Source: a bacterium (GTDB lineage: Bacteria > Patescibacteriota > Minisyncoccia > Phycocordibacterales > Phycocordibacteraceae). Taken from it: a stretch of 34,262 nt of DNA. Every line of letters starts with the position of its first letter. Position 1 is the first letter of the stretch. Position numbers and translations under genes: made by a program. A model generated the notes under the pieces. It was not told where the DNA came from. It saw only the letters and a list, made by a program, of their open reading frames with translations, and did no database searches. Below are positions 5,413-26,642 of this stretch, piece after piece. The stretch lies in NCBI GenBank assembly GCA_021781865.1, contig JAJXVZ010000001.1, positions 1-34,262 of the forward strand, in the 5' to 3' direction.

Positions 5413-5949
5413 ATGAGCGCGTTGTTTAGTAATCCGCAAAAGAATGTCTTACAACTAGGATTGCGCGAGGGTATGAAAATTGGTGATTTTGGCGCAGGTT
5501 CTGGTCATTATTCTCGCGCGGCGGCAGCCGTTGTTGGGGTAAGCGGTAAGGTCTACGCGATTGATATACAAGAGGATATCTTAAAACATTTAAAACTAAA
5601 TACTAATGAACGTCATCAAGGAGTCATTGAGACATTATGGGGCGATATAGAGAAACCGGGAGGTACACACCTGCGTGATATGTTGCTCGATGCCGTCATT
5701 CTTGCCAACACGTTCTTTCAAGTCGAGAATCGTTTTGGATGTTTGGGAGAAATAAAACGTGTTTTAAAATCAAGCAGCAAACTCGTGGTTATTGACTGGG
5801 CGGGTAGTTATAGCGGCATGGGTCCAGCGCCTAAAAAGGTCGTTTCCGAACACGAAGCTGAGGATTTTTTTATTAGTGGCGGTTTCCATAAACTGAAATC
5901 GTTTCGTGCAGGTTCGCATCATTACGGGATTGTATTCACTGCTCCATGA
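5413..5949 (+). CDS. class I SAM-dependent methyltransferase
   Basis: Motif I 'IGDFGAGSGHYS', then 'VYAIDI' (motif II acidic residue) and 'LVVIDW'. The start could also be the ATG at 5395. The stop overlaps the next start (ATGA at 5946-5949). Confidence 0.75.
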   Translation: MSALFSNPQKNVLQLGLREGMKIGDFGAGSGHYSRAAAAVVGVSGKVYAIDIQEDILKHLKLNTNERHQGVIETLWGDIEKPGGTHLRDMLLDAVILANTFFQVENRFGCLGEIKRVLKSSSKLVVIDWAGSYSGMGPAPKKVVSEHEAEDFFISGGFHKLKSFRAGSHHYGIVFTAP

Positions 5950-7256
5950 AAATTTCCCTCTTCCAAGGCATTCTATTTGCTGTTTTCGGTTTTGGTGCGA
6001 TAATTGGGCTCTTTGTCTTTACAACGCATACAGGGAATACGAATAATAGCAATACTATCGGCACCGTTGTTATTTGGGGAACGTTGCCCAAGGCGAATAT
6101 GCAAAACTTCCTCACCGAGATAGGTCAAACTGACCAAGCAATTAAGAATGTCTCATATGTTCAGGAAAATATATCCACCCTGCCGAATGATCTTTCCGCT
6201 GCTATTGCGACTAACAATGCTCCGGACCTCATTCTAGCTTCGCAGGAAGAACTCACATCAATTTCAAAATATCTTATGCCAATTCCGGTAGCAACACTTC
6301 CCACGAGCACATTCGTAAATACCTTTATTGGAGAAGGGAATCTTTTCGCCATCCCCGGGGGTAGTGGTTACTACGGAATACCATTTCTAGTTGATCCACT
6401 CGTACTGTATTCAAATCACACAATTCTTTCCTCTAATGGCATAGCGAAGCCTCCTACGACTTGGGAAGCGTTGATGGGGCTTGTACCAAATGTCGTATCT
6501 CTTACCCCCGCACAGCAGGTTACACGGGGTCTTATCGCGCTCGGCACGTACGACAATATCCACGATGCTCGTGGAATACTTTCTACCTTTTTCTTACAAG
6601 CAGGTGTTCCAATATCTTCATATACATCAAGTGGCAGTTTAGCAGCTGATCTAGGCACGCAGGGGACTTCAAGCGGAATACCACCAGGTGAATCGGTCAT
6701 TGGATTTTATACGCAATTCGCCGACCCATCGAAGGTTTCATATACTTGGAACGCCTCGTTGCCCGATTCGCAGCAAGCGTTTCTCGCAGGCGATCTTGCA
6801 CTTTATCTTGGGTACGCTTCTGAAGCACGTTTCTTCACGCAAGCGAATCCAAACCTCGATTTCGATGTTACTCCGATACCACAACCAGCGACCGCTACTA
6901 CAAAAAATGTTTATGGTCTTGTTTATGCATTCATGATTCCACGTGGAGCTGCGAATTCTTCAGGTGCGTATCAAGTCGCTGGGCTTTTCTCAAACTCGTC
7001 TGAACAGATTGCTGCCGCAGCGACGGGTCTCGCACCCGCGACCCTCAATCAACTTGAAGAACCCCCTACTGATCCAGTCAGTGCCGTTTCATATGCTGAA
7101 GCACTTTACGCAAATGGCTGGTTGTCCCCAGCGCCTGCTAGTACAGACACGGTGTTTTCAGGTATGATTGGGAATGTGATAAGCGGTCGTTCCTCGATTA
7201 GTATCGCTCTTTCTTCCGCAGAACAGGCATTAAACTCTTATTTGCAACAGCAATGA
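5946..7256 (+). CDS. extracellular solute-binding-protein-like protein (ABC-type SBP family 1 fold), N-terminal TM anchor, no cognate permease or ATPase nearby
   Basis: N-terminal hydrophobic helix 'ISLFQGILFAVFGFGAIIGLFVF'. 'APDLILASQEEL', 'YGIPFLVDPLVLYSN' and 'PPTTWEAL' resemble sugar-type SBP signatures. 4-nt overlaps with both neighbours. Confidence 0.6.
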   Translation: MKISLFQGILFAVFGFGAIIGLFVFTTHTGNTNNSNTIGTVVIWGTLPKANMQNFLTEIGQTDQAIKNVSYVQENISTLPNDLSAAIATNNAPDLILASQEELTSISKYLMPIPVATLPTSTFVNTFIGEGNLFAIPGGSGYYGIPFLVDPLVLYSNHTILSSNGIAKPPTTWEALMGLVPNVVSLTPAQQVTRGLIALGTYDNIHDARGILSTFFLQAGVPISSYTSSGSLAADLGTQGTSSGIPPGESVIGFYTQFADPSKVSYTWNASLPDSQQAFLAGDLALYLGYASEARFFTQANPNLDFDVTPIPQPATATTKNVYGLVYAFMIPRGAANSSGAYQVAGLFSNSSEQIAAAATGLAPATLNQLEEPPTDPVSAVSYAEALYANGWLSPAPASTDTVFSGMIGNVISGRSSISIALSSAEQALNSYLQQQ

Positions 7257-7861
7257 TCACACACGTTTTCACTACTATTCGTCGGAATGTGATTAAACTT
7301 TATCTCACTCCATTCCTTGTGTTTTTTCTTTTTTTGATAGGGGTTATACCTGTGTCTGTTCACGCTACAGGTAGTTATTGTGATGCCTCAATACCTTGTC
7401 CAGCTGGTGAGACTTGCTATATGCCGCAAGGAGGTCCTTTTGTGTGTGTCGAGGCAACAAACCCATCACCGACTAGTAATCTAAATCCGTCACCGACTAG
7501 TAATCCAAACCCATCACCGACTAGTAATCCAAGCTCTAGTAATAATCTTACTCCTGGCCCAAGCATCACCCTTATCAATCCGCTGAGTGGGGTCGATTGT
7601 AGTGCGGGCAATGGTAGTTGCTTAAATGCTTTTCTTCTTAACATCCTGCAATTCGTCATACTTATAGGTTCTATCGTTATTGTTTTAATGCTGGTGTTTG
7701 TTGGTTATAAATTCGTCGCGGCACAAGGTTCTCCAGAAAAAATAAAAGAAGCACGAAATATGCTCCTCTGGACCGTTATTGGCGCTCTAGTGCTCCTTGG
7801 GGCACAGGCGATAGCCATGGGTATTCAAGCGACGGTGACTGCACTCACAAGCGGTAGTTAA
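7253..7861 (+). CDS. pilin paralog P1: Cys-rich and Pro/Ser/Thr-repeat N-terminal region fused to a VirB2/TrbC-like two-helix pilin module
   Basis: Signal/anchor 'LTPFLVFFLFLIGVIPVSVHA', then CxxxxxCxxxxxC...C, then 3x NPSPTSN[LP]. The C-terminus has helix - 'AAQGSPEKIKEARNM' - 'LLWTVIGALVLLGAQAIA'. Confidence 0.65.
   Translation: MITHVFTTIRRNVIKLYLTPFLVFFLFLIGVIPVSVHATGSYCDASIPCPAGETCYMPQGGPFVCVEATNPSPTSNLNPSPTSNPNPSPTSNPSSSNNLTPGPSITLINPLSGVDCSAGNGSCLNAFLLNILQFVILIGSIVIVLMLVFVGYKFVAAQGSPEKIKEARNMLLWTVIGALVLLGAQAIAMGIQATVTALTSGS
7460..7531 (+). repeat. 3 x 24-bp in-frame tandem repeat (NPSPTSN[L/P]) inside P1
   Basis: The units are aacccatcaccgactagtaatcta, aatccgtcaccgactagtaatcca and aacccatcaccgactagtaatcca. 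They are read directly from the sequence and are in frame with CDS 7253. Confidence 0.9.
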
Positions 7862-7863
7862 AT

Positions 7864-8151
7864 ATGAATTTAGGTGGTGGCACAAGCTTCAAAAATTTCG
7901 TCGGGAGTGGCACGACGGGTGTTATTGGCATTATTAATACTTTTATCGTGCCAGTTATCTTCACACTTGTATTTGCCGTTTTTGTCTGGAGTATAGTGAA
8001 TTATTTTTTTATCCATGGCGGTGAGGAGGCAAAACGAGAAGAGGGTAGACAATTTATTCTTTGGGGAATAATTGGAATGGTAATACTTTTCGCCGTATGG
8101 GGAATATTGAATATACTGTTATCCACGCTCGGCATTACGCCATCTGCGTGA
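7864..8151 (+). CDS. pilin paralog P2 (VirB2/TrbC-like two-helix small membrane protein)
   Basis: 95 aa. Helix 'IINTFIVPVIFTLVFAVFVWSIVNYF', charged loop 'GGEEAKREEGRQF', then 'ILWGIIGMVILFAVWGILN'. 2-nt gap after P1. Confidence 0.7.
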   Translation: MNLGGGTSFKNFVGSGTTGVIGIINTFIVPVIFTLVFAVFVWSIVNYFFIHGGEEAKREEGRQFILWGIIGMVILFAVWGILNILLSTLGITPSA

Positions 8152-8169
8152 TATGGCATACTTTGGCAT

Positions 8170-8571
8170 ATGAGATCCGTAATTCGTTCCTTCGTTCTTT
8201 TATCGGCATTTGCCCTACCGGCATTTGCATTTGCTCTTCAAATATCTGTAAGTATTGGCATTGGTAACAGTTGCGGTGCGAGTAGTATATGCCAGGTCGC
8301 AAATACTATCCTTTTTCTCATAAATGAGGTCCTAGTGCCGCTCATTTTTGCGATCTCATTCTTGGTTTTTCTCTACGGCGTTTTTAAGCAGTATATATGG
8401 AGTAGGGGAGATGAGGCGGCGGTCACAAAAGGGCACACACTCATTCTTTGGGGAATTATTGGTTTTGTGGTGATGGTGTCGCTCTGGGGGCTCGTGAATG
8501 TTGTTGCAAATACGTTCGGACTTGGCGGCTATACGGCACCACCCTTACCCGTATCGTATCCAACGTATTAA
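8170..8571 (+). CDS. pilin paralog P3 (signal peptide plus two-helix pilin module)
   Basis: Signal peptide 'MRSVIRSFVLLSAFALPAFAFA', a Cys pair (CGASSIC), 'INEVLVPLIFAISFLVFLYGVF', loop 'SRGDEAAVTKGHT', then 'LILWGIIGFVVMVSLWGLVN'. Confidence 0.7.
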   Translation: MRSVIRSFVLLSAFALPAFAFALQISVSIGIGNSCGASSICQVANTILFLINEVLVPLIFAISFLVFLYGVFKQYIWSRGDEAAVTKGHTLILWGIIGFVVMVSLWGLVNVVANTFGLGGYTAPPLPVSYPTY

Positions 8572-8578
8572 TCAATAT

Positions 8579-9043
8579 ATGAGACATTCAGCGCTTACAA
8601 AAATTCTTATCGTTGAATTTCTTCTTCTTTGCTTCGTCGAAATTTTTTCCAGCCCAATGATATTGTTTGCTGCCGTCAAGCCGCCCTGCTTAAGTGGTTA
8701 TATTGGTATAAACTGCACTCCCGTCTCTTCCGTCTCACCTAGTTCCAGCGGCATCAATACCTATTATTTACAAAATTATTCAACGAGCATCATTAATATT
8801 ATTAATGGAATCGTCGCACCAGTGATGCTTGCCGTTGCATTTGTCTTCTTTCTCTACGGTGTGTATAAATATTTTTTCTTAGGCGCAACGAATGAGTCTG
8901 AACGTGCAAACGGTCGACAATTTGTTCTCTGGAGTATTATTGGTTTTGTTGTCATATTTTCAATCTGGGGACTCGTAGGGCTCGTAGGTAGCACATTCGG
9001 TCTTTCGTCGGGCGGTTACGCGCCTCCATATCCGACGTTGTAG
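8579..9043 (+). CDS. pilin paralog P4 (signal peptide plus two-helix pilin module)
   Basis: The internal ATG at 8579 avoids the overlap with P3 that the track start at 8498 creates. 'IINGIVAPVMLAVAFVFFLYGVYKYF', loop 'ATNESERANGRQF', then 'VLWSIIGFVVIFSIWGLVG'. Confidence 0.65.
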   Translation: MRHSALTKILIVEFLLLCFVEIFSSPMILFAAVKPPCLSGYIGINCTPVSSVSPSSSGINTYYLQNYSTSIINIINGIVAPVMLAVAFVFFLYGVYKYFFLGATNESERANGRQFVLWSIIGFVVIFSIWGLVGLVGSTFGLSSGGYAPPYPTL

Positions 9044-9072
9044 AGACTATCCCCATAGGGTGCGGAACTCAG

Positions 9073-9100
9073 TTGACTCAATTCATAAGGACATTATAAT
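9073..9100 (+). promoter_or_regulatory. candidate sigma70-type promoter inside the pilin array (TTGACT-16 nt-TATAAT)
   Basis: TTGACT at 9073-9078 and TATAAT at 9095-9100. They lie in the only sizeable (83 nt) gap of the array, 27 nt upstream of the P5 ATG. Confidence 0.45.
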
Positions 9101-9126
9101 TACCTTGTTACTCACTTATCGACATT

Positions 9127-9504
9127 ATGAAAAAATTTCTCGCCCTTTCTTCAGGAATCCTTGCGGTATTTGCATTACCTCTCATCTCACTTGCTGCGAT
9201 CAATAACGTTTCGGACGCTGGTAATTTTATCATCAATACAATTAATGGCGTTATTGTTCCAGTCATATTTGCCTTGGCGTTTATTGTTTTTCTTTGGGGC
9301 GCATTTTCCACATTTATTATTGGCGCGAACAGCGATGATGTAAAAAAGAAAGGAAAGAATCTCATGCTCTACAGCCTTATCGGTTTTGTGGTAATGGTTT
9401 CCATTTGGGGTCTTGTAAACGCTCTTACCGGTACGATTGGTTTTGGTAACAGTTCTGGCATTACGGGTGGTACACCTAAGGCAGGGGTTCAAATCGGCGG
9501 ATAA
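9127..9504 (+). CDS. pilin paralog P5 (signal peptide plus two-helix pilin module)
   Basis: Signal peptide 'MKKFLALSSGILAVFALPLISLA', 'INGVIVPVIFALAFIVFLWGAF', loop 'ANSDDVKKKGKNL', then 'MLYSLIGFVVMVSIWGLVN'. Confidence 0.7.
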   Translation: MKKFLALSSGILAVFALPLISLAAINNVSDAGNFIINTINGVIVPVIFALAFIVFLWGAFSTFIIGANSDDVKKKGKNLMLYSLIGFVVMVSIWGLVNALTGTIGFGNSSGITGGTPKAGVQIGG

Positions 9505-9810
9505 ATGTCCGTTCTTTACGCGTTCGTCGGAAGAGTTGCTGCACAGATAATCAATCCGATTATCTTACTTCTGGCTGCCGCTGCATTTGTTTTATTTATT
9601 TGGGGCGTGTTCGAATTTGTTCGACAGGCAGGGGATGTTTCGAAACGGAAAAAAGGCCGCGAAGCCATTCTATGGGGTCTCGTTGGACTTCTTATCATCT
9701 TTGGCGCTTATGGCATCATTGACATGGCTATCGGATCATTTAATTTAAGCCCCAATGGCCAATCAACAATCGAAAATGTCCTTCTGCCAATACATCAATC
9801 AAAACCGTAG
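9505..9810 (+). CDS. pilin paralog P6 (two-helix pilin module, no cleavable signal peptide evident)
   Basis: The ATG directly abuts the P5 stop. 'IINPIILLLAAAAFVLFIWGVFEF', loop 'QAGDVSKRKKGREA', then 'ILWGLVGLLIIFGAYGIID'. Confidence 0.65.
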   Translation: MSVLYAFVGRVAAQIINPIILLLAAAAFVLFIWGVFEFVRQAGDVSKRKKGREAILWGLVGLLIIFGAYGIIDMAIGSFNLSPNGQSTIENVLLPIHQSKP

Positions 9811-9872: not shown

Positions 9873-10658
9873 TTATGTACCCATGAACCAATATCGTGGA
9901 AGGGGTACGCCCTTTTGTGGCGTGAATTGAAATGTATTTCCGATACGTTCGTGGCACGTATTAGAAACGACCTCCTCTTCGGTACATGTATATGGTTTTT
10001 CGGGTCCAACCCCGTCAGAAGTTCTATATCCAAGACGGCTAAGATTCATCCAAAACGAAGTTTCAAAGCATACGTTCTTACCGTCCGGTACAGATACTAT
10101 TTTGGTGGACCCATCAGTTCGCACATGAAGGGTATAAAGATGTGTTGCGCGAGTTATATTACACTCAGGAACAACCACCTGGACAATTTTTTTATGAGCC
10201 CCCGGCATTTTTTTACCGTGTGTGATCGGGGCGGCAGCATTGATCCCCATAACGATCGCGACTACGATCGCGACAAAACGTACGAGACTCGACGTCTCTT
10301 TTGGTATGATGACTTCTTTTGCCGTCATTAACGCGAGCTCGCTCTTGCCAAGGCTAAGGGTGCGAATCTCGCATAACAAGGGAACCCAATGCCTCCCCTC
10401 AGAACATTTTATCTCGGTTCTTTTACCAAGAAAGAAAATCGTGCCCTCATGATTTGTAGGTACGTCACGCTGGTGCCTCACAAGCGTGTTGAAGGTAACG
10501 ATACACCCGAGACTGATCCCAATAACTCTTCCAACGAAGGGAAGGGGGTAGTAAAATTCTTTGGCGAAGAACCACCAAGAAACATAAGCAACCTCAGTCC
10601 CTGCGAATATACTCACGATCAGTCCTAACAGCTGGCTCTTGAGGGGGTTAATCTTCAT
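9873..10658 (-). CDS. hypothetical multi-pass membrane protein with a Cys-containing C-terminal domain
   Basis: 261 aa. Hydrophobic segments 'LLGLIVSIFAGTEVAYVSWWFF', 'VIGISLGCIVTF' and 'LVRFVAIVVAIVMGI'. A strong SD (AGGAGG) lies 7 nt upstream of the ATG at 10656-10658. Confidence 0.6.
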   Translation of the reverse strand: MKINPLKSQLLGLIVSIFAGTEVAYVSWWFFAKEFYYPLPFVGRVIGISLGCIVTFNTLVRHQRDVPTNHEGTIFFLGKRTEIKCSEGRHWVPLLCEIRTLSLGKSELALMTAKEVIIPKETSSLVRFVAIVVAIVMGINAAAPITHGKKMPGAHKKIVQVVVPECNITRATHLYTLHVRTDGSTKIVSVPDGKNVCFETSFWMNLSRLGYRTSDGVGPEKPYTCTEEEVVSNTCHERIGNTFQFTPQKGVPLPRYWFMGT

Positions 10659-17721: not shown

Positions 17722-18339
17722 TTAGATCGCTTGTTTGCCACGAGCGAGATTGAAGAGAATTGGGAGGAAGGAGACCACAACGATGACGAGCGAAAGAGGA
17801 AGTACATATTTCCCGCTGTTGGGGACTAGTGAGCCGAGGAAGAATCCGAGCGAAATCATTCCTGCGCCCCAAAGTAAACCGCCAATGATGTTATAGGAAA
17901 TAAATTTTCGATATTTCATGGAGCTTGCGCCGGCGAGGATGGGTGCGATTGTGCGCACGGCTGGCACAAAGCGAGCAAGCACAATCGCACGCCCGCCATA
18001 TTTTTGATAAAACCGTTCAGTGCGCCTGAGGTATTCCTGCTTAAAGAAACGCGAATCCTTGCGCTTGAAAAGTGTGCTACCCATTTTCGAGCCAAACCAA
18101 TAACCGGTCGAGTCACCGAATACTGCGGCGATAACAGTGGAAAAAACGAGTGGCCAGAAAAAGAGGAACCCTCCGGCGGATAAAAGTCCTGCCGCGAAAA
18201 GGATCGAATCGCCAGGAAAAAAAATTCCTATGAAGAGTCCGCTTTCGATGAAGATGAGAAGCGCGATACCGATATAGCCACCAGTCCTTACAATAGCGAA
18301 CGGGTCGAGGTGTATACAGGCGAGTAGAAAATTCGTCAT
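17722..18339 (-). CDS. DedA-family (SNARE-associated / VTT domain) membrane protein
   Basis: 'IFIESGLFIGIFFPGDSILFAAG', 'GYWFGSKMG' and 'RFVPAVRTIAPILAGASSM' are typical DedA motifs. I prefer the ATG at 18337-18339 (MTNFLL...) over the track start at 18378. Confidence 0.85.
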   Translation of the reverse strand: MTNFLLACIHLDPFAIVRTGGYIGIALLIFIESGLFIGIFFPGDSILFAAGLLSAGGFLFFWPLVFSTVIAAVFGDSTGYWFGSKMGSTLFKRKDSRFFKQEYLRRTERFYQKYGGRAIVLARFVPAVRTIAPILAGASSMKYRKFISYNIIGGLLWGAGMISLGFFLGSLVPNSGKYVLPLSLVIVVVSFLPILFNLARGKQAI

Positions 18340-18362
18340 ATTGGTGCAGTATACTGTAACAA

Positions 18363-21137
18363 ATGGAATCCGTACCAAAATTGTCCACGCCTGAGGAGGA
18401 GCTTGCTTACTTGCGTGAACAGGTGCTCCGCAAAGAAGCGGAACTTACTAGGCGTGGAAGGGAACCGGGGATACTCGAGCGCTCTCATATTATTTCCGAA
18501 CAGATTCACGCACATCACATAGCCCCGGAGGAAGTTTTGACACCCGGATATCGCATCAGCGAAACAATGCAAAAGAGCGAAGCAGAGGCGATACTTGCTG
18601 AGCTAAATCTTGGAGAGGACAAACAGGTGATCAAAGGTCTAGAGAGAACTATGAGTGAGAAGGGTATAAAAAACGCACTATCGGTGCTTGAGAAACTTCA
18701 CGATCCACATATTACGGATGACTTCCACCGATATCTTGTACGTTACATCGCGGCGAAGCTTCCAATGCTTGGCGTCAATGAAAAGGCACCGCGTTTCCAA
18801 GCGTTGAGGATGACGCTCTACGAGGTTACGCTCCCAGAACCGAAAAGTGCGGAAACGAACCAGCATGTGAAGACGCTTAAGGAACTTATCTCCGGGATGG
18901 AGCAATTGTATGCGGGGCTTCTTTCGGTCGAGAATGCGGTGATTGGTGAACCTCGCTATTACGCGCTCGAGCTTGCCGTTCCAATGGAAGGTTCTGAACT
19001 CCAATTTTATGTGGCGGTTCCGAATGGAAAGCGCGATCTTTTCGAAAAACAACTCCTCGCTATATTTCCTGATGCGCAAGCGGTACCACAACCATTCGAT
19101 TACAATATCTTTTCTTCACACGGTACCTCGATTGCTTCGACAGCGACGTTTGCAGATGATCCTGCACTACCTCTGAAAGACTATACTGATTTCGACTATG
19201 ACCCAATCAACGCGATTACAAATGCATTCGCCAATATAGAATCCATGGGCGAAGGTGCCGCACTTCAGATAATTATCGAGCCCCGCGCGGAACGGCATGT
19301 GAAGCATTATGCGAAAATTCTTAAGGCTCTGCGCAAGGGTGAAAAACGTATAACAGCATTTAGTACGCCGGAAACAACACTTGGAGAACTTACTCGAGAT
19401 TTTGGAAAAATTCTCTTCTCAAATAAACCCAAGGATGAACAAAAAGCAAAAGAGGCCGAAATACGTCAGATTGAAGAGAACAAGACATATATCGAGCAAG
19501 TTGAAAAAAAGATTGAAGCGCCAATTGTTGGTGCAACAATACGACTCGTTGTTTCCTCTTCCGATGAGCATAAGGCGGATCGAATACTCGGCACGATTGA
19601 GGCAGCATTCAATCAGTTCTCGAATACACGAGGGAACAGACTTGTGTTCAAACGTATTCCGCCAGCAGCACGACATGCGCAAGCGGTTCTCGACGAATTT
19701 TCATTTCGTTTACCTGGCTCCTCAGTCCTTCCGTTATCGATACGGGAACTTACGACTATTTATCATTTCCCGCCAACAGGCATCAAATCTTCGCCACATT
19801 TGAGGCAAGTACGCTTTACGCACGCACCTGCACCGCTTTTACTCCCGCAAACAGGAATGCTTCTTGGTGTTAACACGTATCGTGGGCGGGAGACACGTGT
19901 TTACCTTGACTCTGAAGATCGTCTGCGTCATCTCTACATAATCGGTCAGACCGGTACCGGTAAAACCGGGCTCATGAAATCGATGATTATCCAGGACATC
20001 GAAAACGGAGAAGGTTGCTGTTTCATAGATCCGCACGGTTCCGATATTCTAGACATCCTTGCCGCCGTACCACCTGAGCGTTATAAAGACGTTATCTATT
20101 TCGATCCCGCAGATCTTTCGCGACCATTTAGTCTCAATTTTCTTGAATATGATGTATCACGTCCCGAGCAGAAGACATTCATCGTGAATGAACTCCTGAT
20201 GATCTTTCGTCGACTCTACGGCGACGTGCCGGAAAGCATGGGTCCTGCATTCGAACAGTATTTTCGCAATGCGACGCAACTTGTGATGGAGGATCCCGCG
20301 AGCGGTTCAACTATTCTCGATATCGCGCGCGTGCTCTCTAACAACGAATTTCGTCGCGAGAAACTAGCGAAAAGCATGAATCCAATTGTAAATCAGTTCT
20401 GGAACGAAATTGCGGCAAAAGCTGGTGGCGAAGCGGCGCTTGAAAATATTGTTCCGTATATCACCAACAAATTTGATGATTTTACCGCGAACGATTTTAT
20501 TCGCCCCATCGTTGGACAACAAGAATCATCATTCAAGTTCCGCGAAGTAATGGATACGAAGAAAATCCTTCTCATAAATCTTTCCAAGGGTCGTCTTGGC
20601 GAAAAAAACGCAAACCTTCTCGGGCTTATTATCGTCGGGAAACTTTTCATGGCAGCGCTCTCTCGCGCCGATAATCCTCGTGCACCATACCAACCTTTTT
20701 ATCTATATATTGACGAGTTTCAAAACGTAACTACAGACTCCGTTCCCGGTATTCTTTCTGAAGCGCGTAAGTATAAACTCTCGCTCACGGTGGCGCATCA
20801 ATTTCTCAACCAGATCGAAGAGAAAACCCGTGATGCGATTTTCGGTAATGTCGGTAATATGGTGATTTTCCGTGTAGGTGAAGAAGATGCCGAATTTTTC
20901 TCAAAACAGTTTGCGCCCGTTTTTGAGACACTCGATTTCGTTAACATAGAAAATCGCAACGCCTACGCGAAGATTCTCGTGCGTGGTGTGCCACAAAAGC
21001 CGTTTGATATGAAAACACCAAATTTACCTGCACAAAATTTGGCGCAAGTGGACGATCTTATTCATCTTTCCTCGATCACATACGGTCGCGACCGTGCTAC
21101 AGTTGAAAACACGATTCGCGAGCGTTATCTCTCGTAA
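18363..21137 (+). CDS. T4SS-type P-loop ATPase (VirD4/TraD coupling-protein-like or VirB4-like, FtsK/HerA superfamily) with a large non-membrane N-terminal domain
   Basis: 924 aa. Walker A 'GQTGTGKTG' (nt 19944-19970), 'CCFIDPHG', Walker B 'LYIDEFQ' (nt 20703-20723) and 'RKYKLSLTVAHQFLNQI'. No hydrophobic TM segment is seen in the first ~500 aa. Confidence 0.75.
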   Translation: MESVPKLSTPEEELAYLREQVLRKEAELTRRGREPGILERSHIISEQIHAHHIAPEEVLTPGYRISETMQKSEAEAILAELNLGEDKQVIKGLERTMSEKGIKNALSVLEKLHDPHITDDFHRYLVRYIAAKLPMLGVNEKAPRFQALRMTLYEVTLPEPKSAETNQHVKTLKELISGMEQLYAGLLSVENAVIGEPRYYALELAVPMEGSELQFYVAVPNGKRDLFEKQLLAIFPDAQAVPQPFDYNIFSSHGTSIASTATFADDPALPLKDYTDFDYDPINAITNAFANIESMGEGAALQIIIEPRAERHVKHYAKILKALRKGEKRITAFSTPETTLGELTRDFGKILFSNKPKDEQKAKEAEIRQIEENKTYIEQVEKKIEAPIVGATIRLVVSSSDEHKADRILGTIEAAFNQFSNTRGNRLVFKRIPPAARHAQAVLDEFSFRLPGSSVLPLSIRELTTIYHFPPTGIKSSPHLRQVRFTHAPAPLLLPQTGMLLGVNTYRGRETRVYLDSEDRLRHLYIIGQTGTGKTGLMKSMIIQDIENGEGCCFIDPHGSDILDILAAVPPERYKDVIYFDPADLSRPFSLNFLEYDVSRPEQKTFIVNELLMIFRRLYGDVPESMGPAFEQYFRNATQLVMEDPASGSTILDIARVLSNNEFRREKLAKSMNPIVNQFWNEIAAKAGGEAALENIVPYITNKFDDFTANDFIRPIVGQQESSFKFREVMDTKKILLINLSKGRLGEKNANLLGLIIVGKLFMAALSRADNPRAPYQPFYLYIDEFQNVTTDSVPGILSEARKYKLSLTVAHQFLNQIEEKTRDAIFGNVGNMVIFRVGEEDAEFFSKQFAPVFETLDFVNIENRNAYAKILVRGVPQKPFDMKTPNLPAQNLAQVDDLIHLSSITYGRDRATVENTIRERYLS

Positions 21138-21143
21138 TAGACT

Positions 21144-23786
21144 ATGTCATTAGAAAAGATTCCACGATCGGGAAAGGGGAAATCAATACAGCCGAGCGTA
21201 ATGAATCAAGCGTTTGAAAAAGCTGGAGTTGCGGGAAATAAAGAGGAGTCAGAACGAAGATTCGGTACGTCCATTGGAGAAGAGGTTTTTGAGACGATAA
21301 AAAATATTCCAAAAACAATATTAGAGCGGTCGGAGGAGATACCGATTGAACTCGCAAAAATTTATAAGAATGAAAGACCACCGAAGGATATCACGGACCT
21401 ATATTTGAAACTTCCTCCGCAAAAGCGATCAAGTTATCTTCAATTGTTAACTGATAAGAGAAATGGAAAGGCATCTAGAAAACCAGTAAACAAAAAAAAT
21501 AGACATCCTCGACACCAGGAAAGGGGAAAGAGGTCTCGAACCGTTCAGATGATCGCTGGGAAAGATAAATCAGACCTTGTGAACCCCTGGGGAGTTTATG
21601 GTAAGCGTCGCGAGACTGCTCAGGAAGAGTTTAAGAGAATGTATCCATCTGGACAACCGATACCATTGGATACTCTTAAAAAATATAAATTTTTGATGAA
21701 TGAACAAATCAAAAGTTTCGGTTCTGGGGATGTTGATGAGCAGAAAAGAATCGCTTCAGAAATAGAATCATTCATTATCGAACAAAGGGCGAAAATAGCT
21801 GAGAACTTATCTTCTCAAGACCTTTTTAGTGGTGTTGGGGTAGTAAGGGGGCAGGTGAATAGCGACGACACAAAGAGGGCACGAATAAAAAAGCTTCGTG
21901 ACGATATCGCTACGTTCGAATTGGAAATCGCACATCCAACATACCCACGCACACATGACGTTATTGAGAGGGATGCTCTCGCGGCTGAAGAAGAGTTACG
22001 AAATTTGGAATTAACATTGAGGACGGGAAGTGTCGAGAACAAAGTTCCCGCGACTGGGGACGAATTGCGAGAGCCAGATTTAGCAACTCGATCCGTCCTG
22101 GAAGAAGGGATGCTCATTGCAAACCCCGACCTTGCGCTTGATTCGAAACACGCACGAAGGACGCAAGAATACACACCGAGAGAGTGGCGCAATAAATTAC
22201 GGGTACTTCTTGAAAAATTTGGCGTGAATGAGCGCGATAAGAGTCTAGAGAAATATTCAAAAAATCGTTTGGATGAATTAGATGCTGAATCAAAAAAGCT
22301 AGGAAGAGGGGAAAATATAATTCGTTCACTGGGCGAGAAATACAATAAGTTTAACTTTTTACAGAAACTCGGTATTGGTCTCACGCTTGGCGTGGGAGCG
22401 GCAGCATTTACAGGCGTCTCATTTCCCGTGGCAACCGCCTGTACATTCGGTCTTGGCGTGCAACGTGCATTCGGTATGGCGAGCATGTTCTTGAAATTTG
22501 AGAAACAACTACAAGAATCAACGGAAGGTAAGTCAGAAGGTTTTATCACGCGACGAGGATGGTATAAAGCTTTTGCTGAGAAGACGAAAAATCGGCAGAA
22601 GGAAACTGCAATACTTATGGCCGTTGGATATTCTCTCCTAATGAGTGCTGCTATTAAGGAGACAGTACAGATAGTGAACGAATCTCTCTTAGGTGAGCGG
22701 ATACATGAATGGCTCGGGTATACACTTGGACATACTACTTCTGCTTCTGCACCAGAAGCAACCGCGCCCCTTTCCGTAACACCAGATAATGTCTCTCTTC
22801 CTACTGAAATAGTCCAACAGAATCACGTAGGAATGATGACTGGAATGCCAACTATTGACGCGTCAACCGGACATGGCTATGAGTACATGGCTAAGAAACT
22901 CTGGGAAGAATTGAACGCGAGAGGTATTAAATTGCCTGCAAATGCGAATCCACACAGTGACCTCGCAAGACTTCTTGCGGCTCACGATGATGCATCCATT
23001 AATAAAGTCGTACAGCAGATTGCTAGTGACTCAAGACATGCATTTTCCCATGCTAACGGGATGAGTGTTCGCATTGACCCAAACACACACATGACAATCG
23101 GTACAGACGGACAGATTCATTTGTCAATAGGGAAGGAAAACTTCGTTCATGCGCCAGTGAATGCCACCGTAACACCACCCTATCATGCAGTGGCGTCGAC
23201 TCAGATTCCATCTGTGAATGTAACCCATCATGAAAGCATGATCGCTCATTCGAGTACTCACCAGACACACGAGGTTGGATCTGTCGACAATGCCATGTCA
23301 ACAGAACGAGTCGTTCACCCGCACATGACAACGGAACACATTACTCAACCAGTATCTACTGATTCAGTAGTACACGATGGTACCGGTGGTGTGGTGCATG
23401 ATGGAGAAGGAAATCCGGTCTACGAAAGAAGAACTTATCATAAGGTATCCGATCGCGTATCGACCCCTGTACACGCGCAAGAAGTATTCACGAATGTCCA
23501 CAACATCCATGTTAATTTGACTGAAACACATGGATACTCAAATGGTGAGGGGGTTCTTTATGTCATGGGTGGCGATAAAGCCGTTATAGATAATCAGGCT
23601 CAGGATTATGCGCTAACACACCATGTGCCCGTATTCGTTGATAAATCATACAAACTTCTAGGCGTCATAAATGTTCCAAGGGTTGTCGAGTACGTTCCAA
23701 CTAATAACGGGTCGTTGGAAATGGTTATCCACTCTGGTCCGTCATGGATCCCAAATCCGAAAAACTTTACGAAACGTATTTTCTAA
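21144..23786 (+). CDS. large hypothetical bitopic membrane protein (charged coiled-coil-like N-terminal ~400 aa, hydrophobic segments at aa ~406-450 and 488-504, His-rich C-terminal ~350 aa)
   Basis: 880-aa ORF starting 6 nt after the ATPase stop. 'LGIGLTLGVGAAAFTGVSFPVATACTFGLGV' and 'AILMAVGYSLLMSAAI' are the only hydrophobic stretches. No family recognised. Confidence 0.6.
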   Translation: MSLEKIPRSGKGKSIQPSVMNQAFEKAGVAGNKEESERRFGTSIGEEVFETIKNIPKTILERSEEIPIELAKIYKNERPPKDITDLYLKLPPQKRSSYLQLLTDKRNGKASRKPVNKKNRHPRHQERGKRSRTVQMIAGKDKSDLVNPWGVYGKRRETAQEEFKRMYPSGQPIPLDTLKKYKFLMNEQIKSFGSGDVDEQKRIASEIESFIIEQRAKIAENLSSQDLFSGVGVVRGQVNSDDTKRARIKKLRDDIATFELEIAHPTYPRTHDVIERDALAAEEELRNLELTLRTGSVENKVPATGDELREPDLATRSVLEEGMLIANPDLALDSKHARRTQEYTPREWRNKLRVLLEKFGVNERDKSLEKYSKNRLDELDAESKKLGRGENIIRSLGEKYNKFNFLQKLGIGLTLGVGAAAFTGVSFPVATACTFGLGVQRAFGMASMFLKFEKQLQESTEGKSEGFITRRGWYKAFAEKTKNRQKETAILMAVGYSLLMSAAIKETVQIVNESLLGERIHEWLGYTLGHTTSASAPEATAPLSVTPDNVSLPTEIVQQNHVGMMTGMPTIDASTGHGYEYMAKKLWEELNARGIKLPANANPHSDLARLLAAHDDASINKVVQQIASDSRHAFSHANGMSVRIDPNTHMTIGTDGQIHLSIGKENFVHAPVNATVTPPYHAVASTQIPSVNVTHHESMIAHSSTHQTHEVGSVDNAMSTERVVHPHMTTEHITQPVSTDSVVHDGTGGVVHDGEGNPVYERRTYHKVSDRVSTPVHAQEVFTNVHNIHVNLTETHGYSNGEGVLYVMGGDKAVIDNQAQDYALTHHVPVFVDKSYKLLGVINVPRVVEYVPTNNGSLEMVIHSGPSWIPNPKNFTKRIF

Positions 23787-23799
23787 CACCTATGTTATA

Positions 23800-24105
23800 A
23801 TGCTCTTTATGCAAGATGAACTCACTGCTCTCATCGCCGCCGATCTCGGTATTAAGGATCTCCCGGTTGCCGAGCAACAAACAATCATTGCACAGTTTGG
23901 CGAGATTGCACTCAAAGCGGCAACCTTGTCAGTGATAGGGAAACTTGCTAGTGATAAGCGCGATGAATTCACTAAACTCGCAGAAACTGGTGACGCAACA
24001 GCGCTTAAGACCTTCCTTGACCGAGAAGTCCCTGGGCATGAGAATATCACGCGAGCCGCCGTTGCCGAGGAGGTAAAACGATTTAGAGCTTTTCAAGCCA
24101 CGTAG
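23800..24105 (+). CDS. small acidic helical protein (~100 aa), reminiscent of small DUF-type proteins common in CPR genomes
   Basis: 'MQDELTALIAADLGIKDLPVAEQQTIIAQFGEIALKAATLSVIGKLASDKRDEFTKLAETGD'. The start is the ATG at 23800 or 23809. The track start at 23671 overlaps the upstream gene. Confidence 0.5.
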   Translation: MLFMQDELTALIAADLGIKDLPVAEQQTIIAQFGEIALKAATLSVIGKLASDKRDEFTKLAETGDATALKTFLDREVPGHENITRAAVAEEVKRFRAFQAT

Positions 24106-24137: not shown

Positions 24138-24674
24138 ATGAAACCAACTCAAACTGGAATCGCCATCACACTTGCACTTGTCGTGGTCATAATGTTTTTT
24201 GTTCTCCCAAGTCTTTCGGTTTTCGGAACACCCACCTCATCAGGTACATCAGCTTCCGGAGCCACTATTAATAACAATACTCAAACCGCAACAACTACCA
24301 CTATGCCTAACCAAACCAACACTACTCCGCCCGTGACTCAACTTATAGAGCAAGATGAGGTTATTGGAACAGGCGCTACTGCCGTGGCGGGTGACACTGT
24401 AACCGTAAATTATGTCGGCTCGCTTACCGACGGCACAGTCTTTGACGCCTCTGCTGATCATGGGACTTCGGGTTTCACCTTTGTCCTGGGTGCTGGAAAT
24501 GTTATCAAGGGTTGGGATGAAGGTATTGTTGGGATGAAGGTAGGTGGTAAACGCAAACTTATCATTCCCGCATCGCTCGCGTACGGTAATCAGGCAGTTG
24601 GGAATATCATCCCGGCGAATTCCACACTTATTTTTGAAGTGGAACTCTTAAAAGTTAAAAAAGCAGGAAGCTAA
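24138..24674 (+). CDS. FKBP-type peptidyl-prolyl cis-trans isomerase, membrane-anchored with a Thr/Asn-rich linker
   Basis: 'VTVNYVGSLTDGTVFDAS', 'FTFVLGAGNVIKGWDEGIVGMKVGGKRKLIIPASLAYG' and 'LIFEVELLKV' are canonical FKBP_C motifs. N-terminal TM 'IAITLALVVVIMFFVL'. Confidence 0.9.
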   Translation: MKPTQTGIAITLALVVVIMFFVLPSLSVFGTPTSSGTSASGATINNNTQTATTTTMPNQTNTTPPVTQLIEQDEVIGTGATAVAGDTVTVNYVGSLTDGTVFDASADHGTSGFTFVLGAGNVIKGWDEGIVGMKVGGKRKLIIPASLAYGNQAVGNIIPANSTLIFEVELLKVKKAGS

Positions 24675-24682
24675 GTATCATA

Positions 24683-24711
24683 TTGACAATTGTTATATTG
24701 TAGTTTAAAAT
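24683..24711 (+). promoter_or_regulatory. candidate sigma70-type promoter (TTGACA-17 nt-TAAAAT) for the beta-barrel gene pair
   Basis: TTGACA at 24683-24688 and TAAAAT at 24706-24711, about 88 nt upstream of the ATG at 24800. Confidence 0.5.
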
Positions 24712-24799
24712 ATAAAAGGAAACGACGAACAAAATATAGAGTCGTTCAGTGTGTGATCATTGGTAACTAAACAACTTAAAAAGAGGAAGGAGGTGTTCT

Positions 24800-25333
24800 A
24801 TGCGTCACTGGGCCATATTCGTGATGGCACTTGGTATGTGTGTCTCTTCTTATACTGCTGCTGCTTCTTCTAGCCAGAGCAGGAAGGGAGAGCTCATACT
24901 GTACTTTGGGGAAACTCGGGTCAATTCTTACGTGGACCCCAAAAGCCTGAGTGTCTCTGCAGATTTCAGGCAGAGAATTTCACCGGGTGCCGAGTATTCG
25001 ATTATGCTTATTAACGAAGGGAACCCGCACGGTTTTCCCAAGCGAGATGGTATCGCCGGGGAGATGTGGTGGCGGTTGCCTTTCACTGACGCGAGTCATC
25101 GTCTGGTGATTACGTTAGGCACCGGGCCCTACGTGTATTACGCGACCACCGTGAAGAAGGGAGCCACACCAGGTGGGTACTCCGATGAACATCGACTGGG
25201 TTGGCTCGTGAGCGCGAATGTTGGGTACAACATGAGTCGACATCTCACGCTCAATGTGGGGTGGATTCGTGTCGGGACCGGGAATAGCACCGATACGGAT
25301 ATTCCTCGCGTGGGCATTGGGTACAGAGAGTAA
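24800..25333 (+). CDS. exported small beta-barrel-like protein, paralog A (OmpX/OmpW/PagL-size OMP-like)
   Basis: 177 aa. Signal peptide 'MRHWAIFVMALGMCVSSYTAAA', alternating hydrophobic beta-strand patterning, and C-terminus 'VGIGYRE'. A perfect SD (AGGAGGTG) precedes the ATG. Confidence 0.6.
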   Translation: MRHWAIFVMALGMCVSSYTAAASSSQSRKGELILYFGETRVNSYVDPKSLSVSADFRQRISPGAEYSIMLINEGNPHGFPKRDGIAGEMWWRLPFTDASHRLVITLGTGPYVYYATTVKKGATPGGYSDEHRLGWLVSANVGYNMSRHLTLNVGWIRVGTGNSTDTDIPRVGIGYRE

Positions 25334-25347
25334 CAGGAGGAAGTTCC

Positions 25348-25845
25348 ATGAAGAACGTCATCATCATATTTTTGATGATGGCCGGTGCATTTGTGATCAC
25401 CACAGATGCGTTGGCCGGTGAGGTAGCTGTTTCGGGAGGTACAGTAACTGCTACAGACACCATGGAAGCAGGTCGGGAAGGAACTGCATTGTCCATCAAT
25501 TATCAAGGGCGACTCACGTCTGCGGCGAGGTGGTCAGTAGGATGGATGCAGGAAGATTTTTCACAGGGCTTTCTGAAGAGGAGGGGCGTAGTGACGGAAG
25601 TCATGTTGGAACTTCTCCCGAGTACAAACCGGTTCAACGTTTCTCTTATCCTAGGCCCCTATGCTTATCATGCAAGCGGTAATTATGGAAAAGGGGATGG
25701 ATATGGGATTGCGTTGCAGTCTGGTTTTGACGCCACGTATAAACTTAATAAGAATCTCACGTTCGATGCGGGGTTTCGGAATACCATGACCACAACCACA
25801 TCGAACACGGACCTGATTCTTATAGGGTTGGGCTACAGGAAATAG
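25348..25845 (+). CDS. exported small beta-barrel-like protein, paralog B
   Basis: 165 aa. Signal peptide 'MKNVIIIFLMMAGAFVITTDALA'. Shares 'LGxGPYxYxA' and the C-terminal 'IGLGYRK' with paralog A. SD AGGAGG lies 7 nt upstream. Confidence 0.6.
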   Translation: MKNVIIIFLMMAGAFVITTDALAGEVAVSGGTVTATDTMEAGREGTALSINYQGRLTSAARWSVGWMQEDFSQGFLKRRGVVTEVMLELLPSTNRFNVSLILGPYAYHASGNYGKGDGYGIALQSGFDATYKLNKNLTFDAGFRNTMTTTTSNTDLILIGLGYRK

Positions 25846-25861
25846 TGTGCCCAATCTATTT

Positions 25862-25894
25862 AAAGCCGCACGTTATCAACGCGCGGCTTTTTTA
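25862..25894 (+). terminator. rho-independent terminator after the beta-barrel gene pair
   Basis: Stem aaagccgcacg, loop ttatcaa, stem cgcgcggcttt (one mismatch), with the stem-closing T's running into a TTTTTT tract. Confidence 0.7.
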
Positions 25895-25942
25895 TAAGCA
25901 AAAATATTTCTAACTTTAGAATGTTCATTCAGCTATTCAGAA

Positions 25943-25977
25943 TAAAAAATGGGTGACGGATTGCAACCGTCACCCAT
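25943..25977 (-). terminator. rho-independent terminator for the lipoprotein gene
   Basis: 11-bp perfect stem atgggtgacgg/ccgtcacccat with loop attgcaa. On the minus strand it is followed by a T-run (the complement of aaaaaa at 25944-25949). Confidence 0.7.
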
Positions 25978-25988
25978 TACTATAGCTA

Positions 25989-26621
25989 TTACTGTCCGGG
26001 TGGAAATGGCATATAACCACCCCCATTGATGTATCCCGACATTGGTTTGTTTGAACTGTCTGCCGCTTTCGGAAGTGTCGTTCGACCATTCCCAAACCAT
26101 GGGATAATCTCAATTCCCCCCAAAATATGATAATGGTGATTGGCGTCTCTCACCTGCTGTTCCACACAGTATCCTTGAGCACTTTTCTCACTCGTGCTTT
26201 GCCGATAGCGACCCGTGTTCATTCCAGCAGTGAAGCCGTACCCAAGCCCGCCGAGCATATATCGGACGATATCCGCTCCAGGAAATGCTGCTGCAAAACC
26301 TCCTTCGCCAACTGCAATTGCCAGAGCAGACCATCCGCCCTCTTTCGCTATCGCCTGTGCCCAGCCCGGGAGTTGATGAAAAAGTTTCCCCTGGCAGTAC
26401 TTGTCCAAGTAGAGAATTTGGGTTCTCTCCACCTTTGACCATCTCGCCTGTTTCCCGTTTGAAGCAGGGACGTAAGGGATGTCGCCTGCTGCCGGTACGA
26501 CAGCATACGCGCCAGAAAACTTTTCCCCCCGATCCCCGATCGTGCTAGTGCTGGCGCATGCCCCCAATAATCCGAGGGTTGTTATCACCAGAACAATCTC
26601 GACGACCGACTTTACCGTCAT
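25989..26621 (-). CDS. hypothetical lipoprotein
   Basis: Lipobox 'LGLLGAC' after a hydrophobic h-region, and a Gly-rich 'GGLGYGFTAGMNTG' segment. I prefer the ATG at 26619-26621 (GGAGG 5 nt upstream) over the GTG at 26633. Confidence 0.6.
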   Translation of the reverse strand: MTVKSVVEIVLVITTLGLLGACASTSTIGDRGEKFSGAYAVVPAAGDIPYVPASNGKQARWSKVERTQILYLDKYCQGKLFHQLPGWAQAIAKEGGWSALAIAVGEGGFAAAFPGADIVRYMLGGLGYGFTAGMNTGRYRQSTSEKSAQGYCVEQQVRDANHHYHILGGIEIIPWFGNGRTTLPKAADSSNKPMSGYINGGGYMPFPPGQ

Positions 26622-26642
26622 AAAGACCTCCACTTATCTATA

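Follow-up and report, generated by a model that had tools for sequence, protein, structure and literature searches.

Coupling ATPases that lack a transmembrane helix and have a membrane partner are a recognized subclass of type IV coupling proteins (T4CPs), as described for TraJ and TraI of pIP501 (PMC7434980, PMC12857230). Similar proteins are known in phages: Pathria et al. (2012; PMC3357382) described orf201 of 0305phi8-36 and gp27.4 of SPO1 as coupling ATPases or translocases without a transmembrane helix, belonging to a phage "DNA translocation operon". According to the same work, such translocases are common, and a separate protein may give membrane association. In Patescibacteria, 5,713 VirD4-like (T4CP) homologues occur in 2,918 genomes, and 148 of them are located near virB4 (PMC12102498). 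Here we describe a 924-residue ATPase and two genes following it in a 34,262-nucleotide stretch of a Patescibacteriota genome (contig JAJXVZ010000001.1 of assembly GCA_021781865.1, positions 1 to 34,262 of the forward strand), referred to as the window. The ATPase consists of three parts, which are an N-terminal helical region, a DUF8128 domain and a TrwB/VirD4-type T4CP ATPase. With somewhat better than even confidence, we take it to be an orphan ATPase of the TrwB/VirD4/TraG branch of the FtsK-HerA superfamily with a lineage-specific accessory module that is not an obligatory membrane anchor. An earlier note, made from the sequence alone, had instead proposed that the 880-residue protein encoded next may anchor the ATPase in trans, which would give a minimal machine for the export of DNA or protein or for the nearby pilin paralogues.

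Architecture and relatives of the ATPase

The three open reading frames (ORFs) are arranged in tandem on the + strand. The ORFs, the motifs and the gaps given in the earlier note are all found in the sequence and its translation. The gap between the ATPase gene and the 880-codon ORF is 6 nt, and the following ORF of 101 codons starts at an in-frame ATG 13 nt past the preceding stop. The search for homologues of the ATPase gave more than 3400, and the ORFs are therefore regarded as real genes and not as chance ORFs. The features of the ATPase are as follows (coordinates in the window).

18363–21137, + strand: 924-residue ATPase with DUF8128 and a T4CP-like motor, without a transmembrane helix (ORF, hydropathy, Pfam, AlphaFold2 with pLDDT 84)
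18363–18764, + strand: N-terminal helical region, residues 1–134, six predicted helices (AlphaFold2 secondary structure; hidden Markov model (HMM) against upstream ORFs)
18765–19856, + strand: DUF8128 alpha/beta domain, residues 135–498 (HMM matches to SPO1 gp27.4 and phrog_5156)
19857–21137, + strand: TrwB/VirD4-type nucleotide-binding domain with an all-alpha insert at about residues 600–725 (PDB profile search, Foldseek)
19944–19967, + strand: Walker A GQTGTGKT, residues 528–535 (Gly528, Thr530, Gly531, Gly533 and Lys534 invariant)
20703–20723, + strand: Walker B LYIDEFQ, residues 781–787 (aligned with Walker B of TrwB)
20778–20816, + strand: LSLTVAHQFLNQI motif, residues 806–818, T4CP sensor region (translation, family alignment, PDB profile)

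The Walker A segment reads GQTGTGKTG up to residue 536, and the positions of Walker A, Walker B and LSLTVAHQFLNQI are invariant or nearly so in an alignment of 28 diverse homologues. In the Pfam scan, TraG-D_C (9.5e-8; 32.5 bits, cutoff 22) and TrwB_AAD_bind (1.3e-4; 21.4 bits, cutoff 20.5) pass their cutoffs, and DUF87 (6e-7) and T4SS-DNA_transf also match. Among the 28 members, TrwB_AAD_bind is found in all, TraG-D_C in 26 and T4SS-DNA_transf in 13 (best 7.8e-12), and CagE_TrbE_VirB, the N-terminal domain of VirB4, is found in none. The DUF87 and FtsK_SpoIIIE matches of the window protein and these members are confined to the P-loop region. The matching NCBIfam models are SXT_TraD and CD1115 VirD4-like (residues 516–847) and TOL_TraD, with 55.5, 44.9 and 40.1 bits against cutoffs of 366, 250 and 648, respectively, none of which is reached. 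The match to VirB4_CagE (TIGR00929) is restricted to the P-loop. When PDB sequences are searched with a family profile, TrwB (4.8e-5) and DotL (6.6e-4) are the best matches and HerA is much weaker, while the same search with the single ATPase sequence finds no match.

The AlphaFold2 model of the ATPase was built from the 28-sequence family alignment. In the Foldseek comparison with the PDB, the TM-scores are 0.63–0.67 for TrwB, 0.69 for the C-terminal domain of VirB4 (4ag5), 0.54 for HerA and 0.53 for DotL. The alignment of the predicted model with TrwB spans about 430 columns, which is essentially the whole chain of TrwB(deltaN70) with its approximately 430 residues. The insertion in the nucleotide-binding domain should be noted, since an all-alpha insertion at this place is a mark of T4CPs; it is present in the predicted structure. 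Thus, Pfam, NCBIfam, the PDB profile search and the superposition on TrwB support a T4CP-type motor in the C-terminal half, and the profile and structure matches favour this type over HerA and FtsK, in agreement with the T4SS type assigned in the earlier note.

Full-length TrwK/VirB4 has the lowest Foldseek E-values in the PDB (2e-12, about 900 columns), although its TM-scores are only 0.26–0.34 and the root-mean-square deviation (rmsd) is about 16 Å. These matches, the VirB4 C-terminal domain having the highest domain TM-score, and an hhalign alignment of residues 445–560 (profile columns 435–547) with VirB4 residues 370–473 at 86.7% probability are the grounds for considering a divergent VirB4-like assembly ATPase, that is, a soluble two-domain protein docking on membrane partners as VirB4 does on VirB3/VirB8. 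We judge this very unlikely. Besides the low global TM-scores and high rmsd, DUF8128 by itself does not match the VirB4 alignment in the profile comparison, no member contains CagE_TrbE_VirB, TIGR00929 covers the P-loop only, the ATPase gene has neither VirB3 nor TrsD as a neighbour, and the phage T4CP-like proteins described below match far better over the full length. VirB4 was compared both as a single sequence against the profile and, by hhalign, as an 8-sequence alignment built from plasmids. Homology of the N-terminal half with VirB4 was rejected as unproven, because only the linker and the P-loop were aligned.

DUF8128 (PF26449) is given for the window protein and all its close homologues in precomputed annotation, and is not returned by the local Pfam scan of the window protein. 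A library-wide HMMER search with residues 1–505 collects 915 clusters at 50% identity (E<=1e-3). The named DUF8128 members are nearly all from Parcubacteria, Paceibacterota, Minisyncoccia or Wolfebacteria. A literature search for DUF8128, and likewise for the DUF5663 family that appears below, found no papers.

Outside the candidate phyla radiation, full-length relatives are known from Bacillus phages. The PHROGs family phrog_5156 matches residues 150–920 at 1.8e-69, and tblastn aligns SPO1-like Bacillus phages at 82% query coverage and about 21% identity. An HMM of DUF8128 only (residues 140–470) matches residues 26–334 of SPO1 gp27.4 with an E-value of 3.4e-20. Foldseek against BFVD with the full-length model finds gp156 of phage G (3.3e-40) and a protein of phage JL (TM-score 0.6, rmsd 7.7, 842 columns). 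SPO1 gp27.4 has no transmembrane helix and has an acidic C-terminal tail. It is encoded (locus L106, SPO1 2965–8475; homologous loci are given L numbers here) between gp27.5, a 73-residue protein with two transmembrane helices, and the Replic_Relax nickase gp27.3, with the actin-like partition protein gp27.9 nearby.

Phage homologues, a match of motor residues 522–850 (window 19926–20912) to the PADLOC mad8 ATPase of methylation-associated defence (2.6e-15), and the variable presence and fast evolution of the downstream module would agree with the locus being what is left of a prophage, antiphage defence system or integrated mobile element. The chance of this seems minimal to us. The housekeeping synteny is stable in 80 species, no integrase, relaxase or other element gene is found, the GC content of the window is uniform, and purifying selection is strong. 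In addition, the two partner proteins have no PADLOC match, only the motor matching mad8. The defence-system and mobile-element candidates were rejected because of the stable synteny.

The 924-residue gene is a conserved chromosomal core gene of Parcubacteria and is vertically inherited. The best 120 homologues are 77–90% identical over the full length, and the order holin_4_2, DedA (− strand), ATPase, downstream genes, FKBP, TGT and UvrB is kept across the loci of 80 GTDB species. The mean identity to the window protein in 74 species is 60% for residues 1–134, 68% for residues 135–498 and 85% for residues 499–924. The neighbouring UvrB is about 85% identical, similar to the motor. Across the wider family, DUF8128 ATPases are found with uvrABC, with ribosomal-protein/secY clusters and, in two distant loci, with rmuC. 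RmuC, a DNA recombination protein, adjoins or lies near the ATPase in these two distant Parcubacteria lineages (L093 8456–9460; L097 9572–10630).

A core gene that is vertically inherited and strongly conserved in housekeeping contexts could encode a T4SS-independent (T4SS, type IV secretion system) housekeeping DNA translocase, FtsK- or HerA-like, which would act in chromosome segregation, repair or DNA uptake and would have arisen by exaptation of a coupling ATPase of conjugation or of phages. The FtsK-HerA superfamily membership with the DUF87 and FtsK_SpoIIIE matches at the P-loop, the nickase and actin-like partition protein encoded near the phage homologue, and the possible exaptation noted in the literature (PMC12102498) agree with this idea, which we nevertheless find rather doubtful. 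The profile and structure matches favour T4CPs over HerA and FtsK, and gene context in tiny genomes is weak evidence. HerA has a HAS-barrel N-terminal domain and a NurA partner, and FtsK has an N-terminal domain with four transmembrane helices and a gamma domain; a HAS barrel, a NurA partner and an FtsK gamma domain are absent from the window ATPase and its neighbours. A literature search on FtsK in the candidate phyla radiation found nothing specific to Parcubacteria.

Some labels of the homologues should be noted. Contigs labelled "uncultured Candidatus Saccharibacteria" (L010, L012, L028, L032 and others) have ATPases about 80% identical to those of Kaiserbacteria/Paceibacterota in the same synteny, and one homologue (P0141) is from a metagenome-assembled genome (MAG) labelled "Patiriisocius sp."; a wrong taxon or binning contamination is the probable cause of both labels. 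Two MAGs have two contigs each with a full or partial ATPase 75–83% identical to that of the window, namely WY3.bin61 (L042 and L051) and S40-23 (L016 and L065). The duplicates could be true paralogues, or the bins could contain more than one strain.

Membrane association and the downstream module

A Kyte–Doolittle mean of at least 1.6 over 19 residues was used as the threshold for a transmembrane helix. No segment of the 924-residue ATPase reaches it, and the maximum, 1.57 at residue 749, is inside the ATPase fold. The scan confirms that a transmembrane helix is absent, including from the first approximately 500 residues as had been pointed out before. T4CPs typically have an N-terminal transmembrane domain. 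The window ATPase has a soluble N-terminal half of 500 residues instead, made up of the helical region and DUF8128.

The sister subfamilies (790–840 residues, e.g. in Wolfebacteria) have a single N-terminal hydrophobic helix, directly followed by the DUF8128 core, which aligns from about residue 145 of the window protein. Four loci with such anchored ATPases of 792–840 residues were compared (L089 7602–10379, L092 5479–8415, L093 5615–8472 and L094 5574–8523). All four have a soluble ORF of 129–162 residues immediately upstream of the ATPase, and all four are without the module of the 880-residue and DUF5663-like proteins. An HMM of residues 1–140 of the window-type ATPases matches the upstream ORFs in L094 (1.7e-4) and L093 (2.7e-4), which are its sole matches outside the ATPase family among 15,588 ORFs. 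The homologous part corresponds to residues 64–137 of the window ATPase, and the motif G-x-x-x-A...NPH-x-x-D-x-x-H is common to all four upstream ORFs and residues 100–125 of the window protein. This homology points to gene fusion or fission within the family. We infer two forms, a split one with a small helical protein and a membrane-anchored ATPase, and a fused one in which the helical region is joined to the ATPase and the transmembrane helix is gone. Three more distant members without a transmembrane helix (907–915 residues) stand alone among housekeeping genes and have no module. As for other genes at the anchored loci, a cluster for type IV pili (PilM/O/B/T/C) is found in L089 1–8 kb downstream of the ATPase, together with a ComF-like gene.

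The genes downstream of the window ATPase and their parts are as follows.

21144–23786, + strand: 880-residue fast-evolving membrane protein (no Pfam, NCBIfam, PADLOC or PHROG family; always between the ATPase and DUF5663 genes)
21144–22163, + strand: its N-terminal region, residues 1–340, hypervariable, charged, predicted cytoplasmic (conservation profile)
22164–22682, + strand: its conserved juxtamembrane helix and transmembrane cluster (hydropathy, conservation, AlphaFold2)
22839–23180, + strand: its predicted extracytoplasmic domain 1, residues 566–679, conserved, alpha+beta (AlphaFold2 pLDDT 81–95; no fold match)
23478–23783, + strand: its C-terminal beta-rich domain 2, residues 779–880, conserved (confident in AlphaFold2; no fold match)
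23800–24105, + strand: 101-residue DUF5663-like protein (Pfam below cutoff; gained and lost jointly with the 880-residue protein)
24138–24674, + strand: membrane-anchored FKBP peptidyl-prolyl isomerase (FKBP_C 2e-33; 32 nt after the small gene)

In related species, the usual order is the ATPase, a protein of 530–1120 residues with a transmembrane cluster in its middle (the long protein), a protein of about 100 residues (the small protein) and FKBP, which is a conserved co-directional neighbour. The median gap is 4 nt between the ATPase and long genes (61 species) and 9 nt between the long and small genes (50 species), so the tight operon seen in the window is conserved. The same order is found in the group with ATPases of 59–64% identity, where BLAST misses the long protein. 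No terminator-like site is present on the + strand between 18363 and 24674, and the first strong promoter-like site is at 24683–24711, downstream of the FKBP gene. This pattern is weak evidence, consistent with a possible single transcript from the ATPase to FKBP. On the other side, the − strand DedA/VTT gene starts only 23 nt from the start of the ATPase (window 18339–18363), a spacing that recurs across numerous related loci (9977 versus 10001). Each of the two promoters must therefore lie within the adjacent coding region.

The 880-residue protein has weak hydrophobic helix cores at about residues 405–424, 427–450 and 488–510, judging from hydropathy and AlphaFold2. The AlphaFold2 model of residues 335–880, built with database homologues and only partly confident (pLDDT 66), has helices at about residues 405–424, 427–460 and 482–513. 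The flanking charges suggest an N-in, C-out topology with about three transmembrane helices, leaving approximately 400 residues in the cytoplasm and 360 outside. The protein had been described as bitopic, which is not clearly the case with three weak helices, whereas the net N-in/C-out orientation and the cytoplasmic part of about 400 residues are as assumed. Neither a PDB profile search nor Foldseek gives a significant match for the protein or detects a channel-like or T4SS-like fold in it, and domains 1 and 2 match nothing at E<=1e-3. Searches of Pfam, NCBIfam, PADLOC and PHROGs give no credible match, the Pfam FA_desaturase_2 match (E 0.0074) being below threshold. A profile search collects just 28 relatives from the database, none of which has a name or a Pfam family, and the most divergent of them is also encoded between a DUF8128 ATPase and DUF5663/FKBP. 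For the 101-residue protein, the Pfam match to DUF5663 is below the cutoff (1.8e-3; 1.3e-4 to 1.2e-3 for orthologues) and is the only one, NCBIfam, PADLOC and PHROGs giving none.

The two module proteins evolve fast. Long proteins are 25–50% identical where the ATPases are 75–80% identical. Residues 1–340 are hypervariable and charged, and the conserved regions are residues 341–460, 566–679 and 779–880. The sole recurrent feature of residues 1–340 is a Pro-Pro motif, which occurs within the first 25 residues in 32 of 62 long proteins versus 3–10 of 62 in the later 25-residue segments. At the N-terminus (window 21144–21220; orthologues in L009–L087), the enriched motif is a hydrophobic residue followed by Pro-Pro and then basic residues, with KIPRSGKGK as the variant in the window. 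The small protein is 54–90% identical in the close group and is recognizably homologous in the distant group (alignment of 50 orthologues).

The module is dispensable. It follows the ATPase in about 85% of related species and is missing in 8–9 of approximately 65 informative species, the long and small genes always co-occurring and being lost together. Both are absent in seven loci (L020, L025, L030, L032, L038, L058 and L068), where a gap of 160–410 nt remains, and in L013 and L078 the module is either missing or degraded. For L030, a 993-kb chromosome, three independent assemblies agree on the arrangement. Since the species without the module are scattered over the neighbour-joining tree of the ATPase and have sisters with it, at least seven independent losses have occurred, loss meaning absence beside the ATPase. 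The conservation of the ATPase does not differ between species that lost and retained the module in any region (Mann–Whitney p 0.49–0.64). The pairing on which the earlier note relied is therefore common in related species but incomplete, and the three distant members without a transmembrane helix are outside it.

These observations bear on the proposed membrane anchor in trans. The idea is plausible and has precedents in TraJ/TraI and in orf201/gp27.4, and the membrane-anchored sisters without the module agree with it. However, such an anchor is probably not required, because the module has been lost repeatedly and is missing beside the distant members that also lack a transmembrane helix.

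The pilin array and the reading of the locus

Six tandem T4SS_pilin (PF18895) genes are located at 7253–9810, and the array ends 8.55 kb upstream of the ATPase. It directly follows a solute-binding-protein gene (window 5946–9810 for both), the start of the first pilin overlapping the stop of that gene by 4 nt, and a gene of a protein with three transmembrane helices and no assigned function lies just downstream on the opposite strand (9873–10658). In Patescibacteria, 441 pilin arrays are known (PMC12102498). Pfam scanning of the approximately 32 larger proteins of the window (shortest 95 residues) finds no VirB4, VirB6, VirB3, VirB8 or relaxase, in line with the earlier statement that no other T4SS core gene is recognizable. 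In 80 other species, tblastn places no pilin gene closer than 10 kb to the ATPase. When all ORFs of 87 loci are searched with an HMM of the six window pilins, there is no match outside the window, and no VirB4 or relaxase is found in the called neighbourhoods of more than 80 other loci. The proximity of the array and the ATPase is thus incidental, as pilins are not linked to the ATPase in the other species, and the suggestion that the cassette is the motor of the pilin paralogues is not borne out. Also, the literature places a VirB4-based T4SS elsewhere in most Patescibacteria: VirB4 is present in 2,417 of 3,035 assemblies (80%), usually near dnaA/dnaN and often with pilins beside it (PMC12102498).

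The same distribution brings in another role for the ATPase, as the coupling protein of a chromosomal VirB4-type T4SS encoded elsewhere, with the 880-residue and DUF5663-like proteins as substrate or adaptor. The T4CP-type motor and the frequent separation of T4CP genes from virB4 in genomes with VirB4 make this possible, and we hold it tentatively, well below even confidence. No linkage to T4SS genes is seen in the more than 80 other loci, and conservation at the level of UvrB is unusual among T4SS parts. In S. epibionticum, the T4SS genes are essential but the t4cp homologue is not, and exaptation is raised by the authors (PMC12102498).

A minimal machine for translocation or assembly that is complete in itself, in which the 880-residue protein is the trans anchor and pilin paralogues are served or DNA or protein is exported, appears unlikely. 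It would explain the tight operon in 50–61 species, the predicted N-in/C-out protein with its cytoplasmic region of about 400 residues, the N-terminal Pro-Pro motif, which could be a docking peptide, and the complementary distribution with the anchored sisters (no module in 4/4 loci), besides having the precedents named above. However, the module is missing in 8–9 species after at least seven losses without relaxation of the ATPase, and three distant members do without it. Pilins are more than 10 kb away or absent in the 80 other species and are accounted for by the VirB4-based T4SS of most Patescibacteria. The 880-residue protein itself evolves far faster than the motor and has only two to three weak transmembrane helices and no channel-like or T4SS-like fold, so that the claim of a self-contained translocon was not upheld.

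It is also quite improbable, in our view, that the ATPase, the 880-residue protein and the DUF5663-like protein form a T4SS-independent device for surface display or export in Kaiserbacteria-like Parcubacteria. In such a device, the hexamer would engage the hypervariable cytoplasmic arm of the 880-residue protein, which is tagged with Pro-Pro at its N-terminus, with the DUF5663-like protein as an adaptor. The motor would power or regulate an external domain that evolves fast at the interface with the host, or else thread a substrate through the transmembrane cluster. If true, this would be a new machine of two or three parts derived from those of conjugation and phage DNA translocation.

The reading that we prefer is the orphan TrwB/VirD4/TraG-branch ATPase with an accessory module. 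The ATPase would form a hexameric, ATP-driven ring at the cytoplasmic face of the membrane, to which it may be recruited via protein contacts of its N-terminal half. By analogy with the conjugative and phage relatives, the substrate is most likely DNA or a DNA–protein complex. In the Kaiserbacteria-like clade, the ATPase would be co-transcribed with the N-in/C-out 880-residue protein and the DUF5663-like protein, and the probable role of the module is to bind the motor and link it to the cell surface, as receptor, adaptor or client. Several points weigh against this reading. We infer the ATPase activity, oligomeric state, localization, substrate and contact with the module, a DNA substrate by analogy only, since no relaxase or nickase is encoded beside the Parcubacteria genes. 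The NCBIfam scores far below all curated T4CP cutoffs indicate that the ATPase is no equivalog of the T4CPs studied so far, and with full-length VirB4 as the top PDB Foldseek matches there is some small chance of a VirB4-like role. Homology of the helical region with the upstream ORFs is supported by modest E-values, in only two of the four loci. Finally, a module counted as lost could have moved elsewhere in the genome.

The remaining genes of the window are housekeeping ones (gyrA, pyruvate kinase, DsbA-like, DedA/VTT, FKBP, TGT and uvrB/A/C). Between FKBP and TGT, three genes are inserted (24683–26633). Two encode paralogous signal-peptide proteins (24800–25333 and 25348–25845; 24% identity, E 4e-12) that are found in the window species only, and beside them a 214-residue protein with a lipobox is encoded on the − strand (25989–26633). 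The promoter-like site at 24683–24711 is near-consensus sigma-70-like and precedes the paralogues. The protein of 24800–25333 is just above the Pfam threshold of OMP_b-brl, and proteins resembling outer-membrane barrels are unexpected in what is presumed to be a monoderm.

Comparison with described systems

The Patescibacteria have about two VirD4-like genes per genome, unlinked to the essential T4SS, and one family of them now has a defined anatomy. This family is tied to the "DNA translocation" ATPases of Bacillus phages and is conserved as strongly as UvrB, and a fast-evolving cassette specific to one clade could connect the motor to the surface of the epibiont cell. The tempting link to the pilin array is removed as unsupported. 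Three questions thereby become concrete, namely whether the motor is a DNA translocase, whether an anchor in trans is needed and whether the variable surface protein faces the host.

Among the described proteins, gp27.4, orf201 and gp156 of phages share with the window ATPase a DUF8128-type N-terminal domain and a T4CP-like motor without a transmembrane helix. The phage genes are non-essential cargo with nickase, actin-like and two-transmembrane-helix neighbours, whereas the gene of the window belongs to the chromosomal core, is without a nickase, has the additional fused helical region and is partnered by the 880-residue and DUF5663-like proteins. TraJ of pIP501 is likened to the window ATPase by description, as a coupling-type ATPase without a transmembrane helix encoded beside a membrane protein that is proposed as its anchor. 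However, TraI is a small protein with two transmembrane helices within a complete conjugative T4SS operon with a relaxase. The neighbour in the window has 880 residues with large cytoplasmic and external parts, evolves fast and is dispensable in several lineages, and no T4SS or relaxase gene is near the ATPase.

The window ATPase can be aligned with TrwB of R388, VirD4 and DotL in Walker A, Walker B and the sensor motif, and shares with them the nucleotide-binding fold with an inserted helical domain. It differs from them in having no N-terminal transmembrane domain but a soluble N-terminal half of 500 residues, in its NCBIfam scores below the cutoffs and in not being on a mobile element. VirB4 (TrwK of R388) is likewise an ATPase that is soluble, has two domains and is about as long, and the Foldseek matches to it, over about 900 columns, rank first in the PDB; the differences are the low TM-scores, the lack of profile similarity in the N-terminal domain, and the absence of CagE_TrbE_VirB and of an adjacent VirB3.

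The orphan T4CPs of Patescibacteria surveyed by Quinonero-Coronel et al. (2025) are chromosomal VirD4-like genes away from virB4, and the window gene, likened to them by description, fits that account. The survey does not describe the DUF8128 N-terminal domain, the split and fused forms or the cassette of the 880-residue and DUF5663-like proteins. Accordingly, orphan T4CPs in Patescibacteria and coupling ATPases that lack a transmembrane helix and have a proposed partner in trans were already known, whereas the anatomy of the family with its split and fused forms, the link to phages, the conservation as a core gene and the 880-residue/DUF5663 cassette are new.

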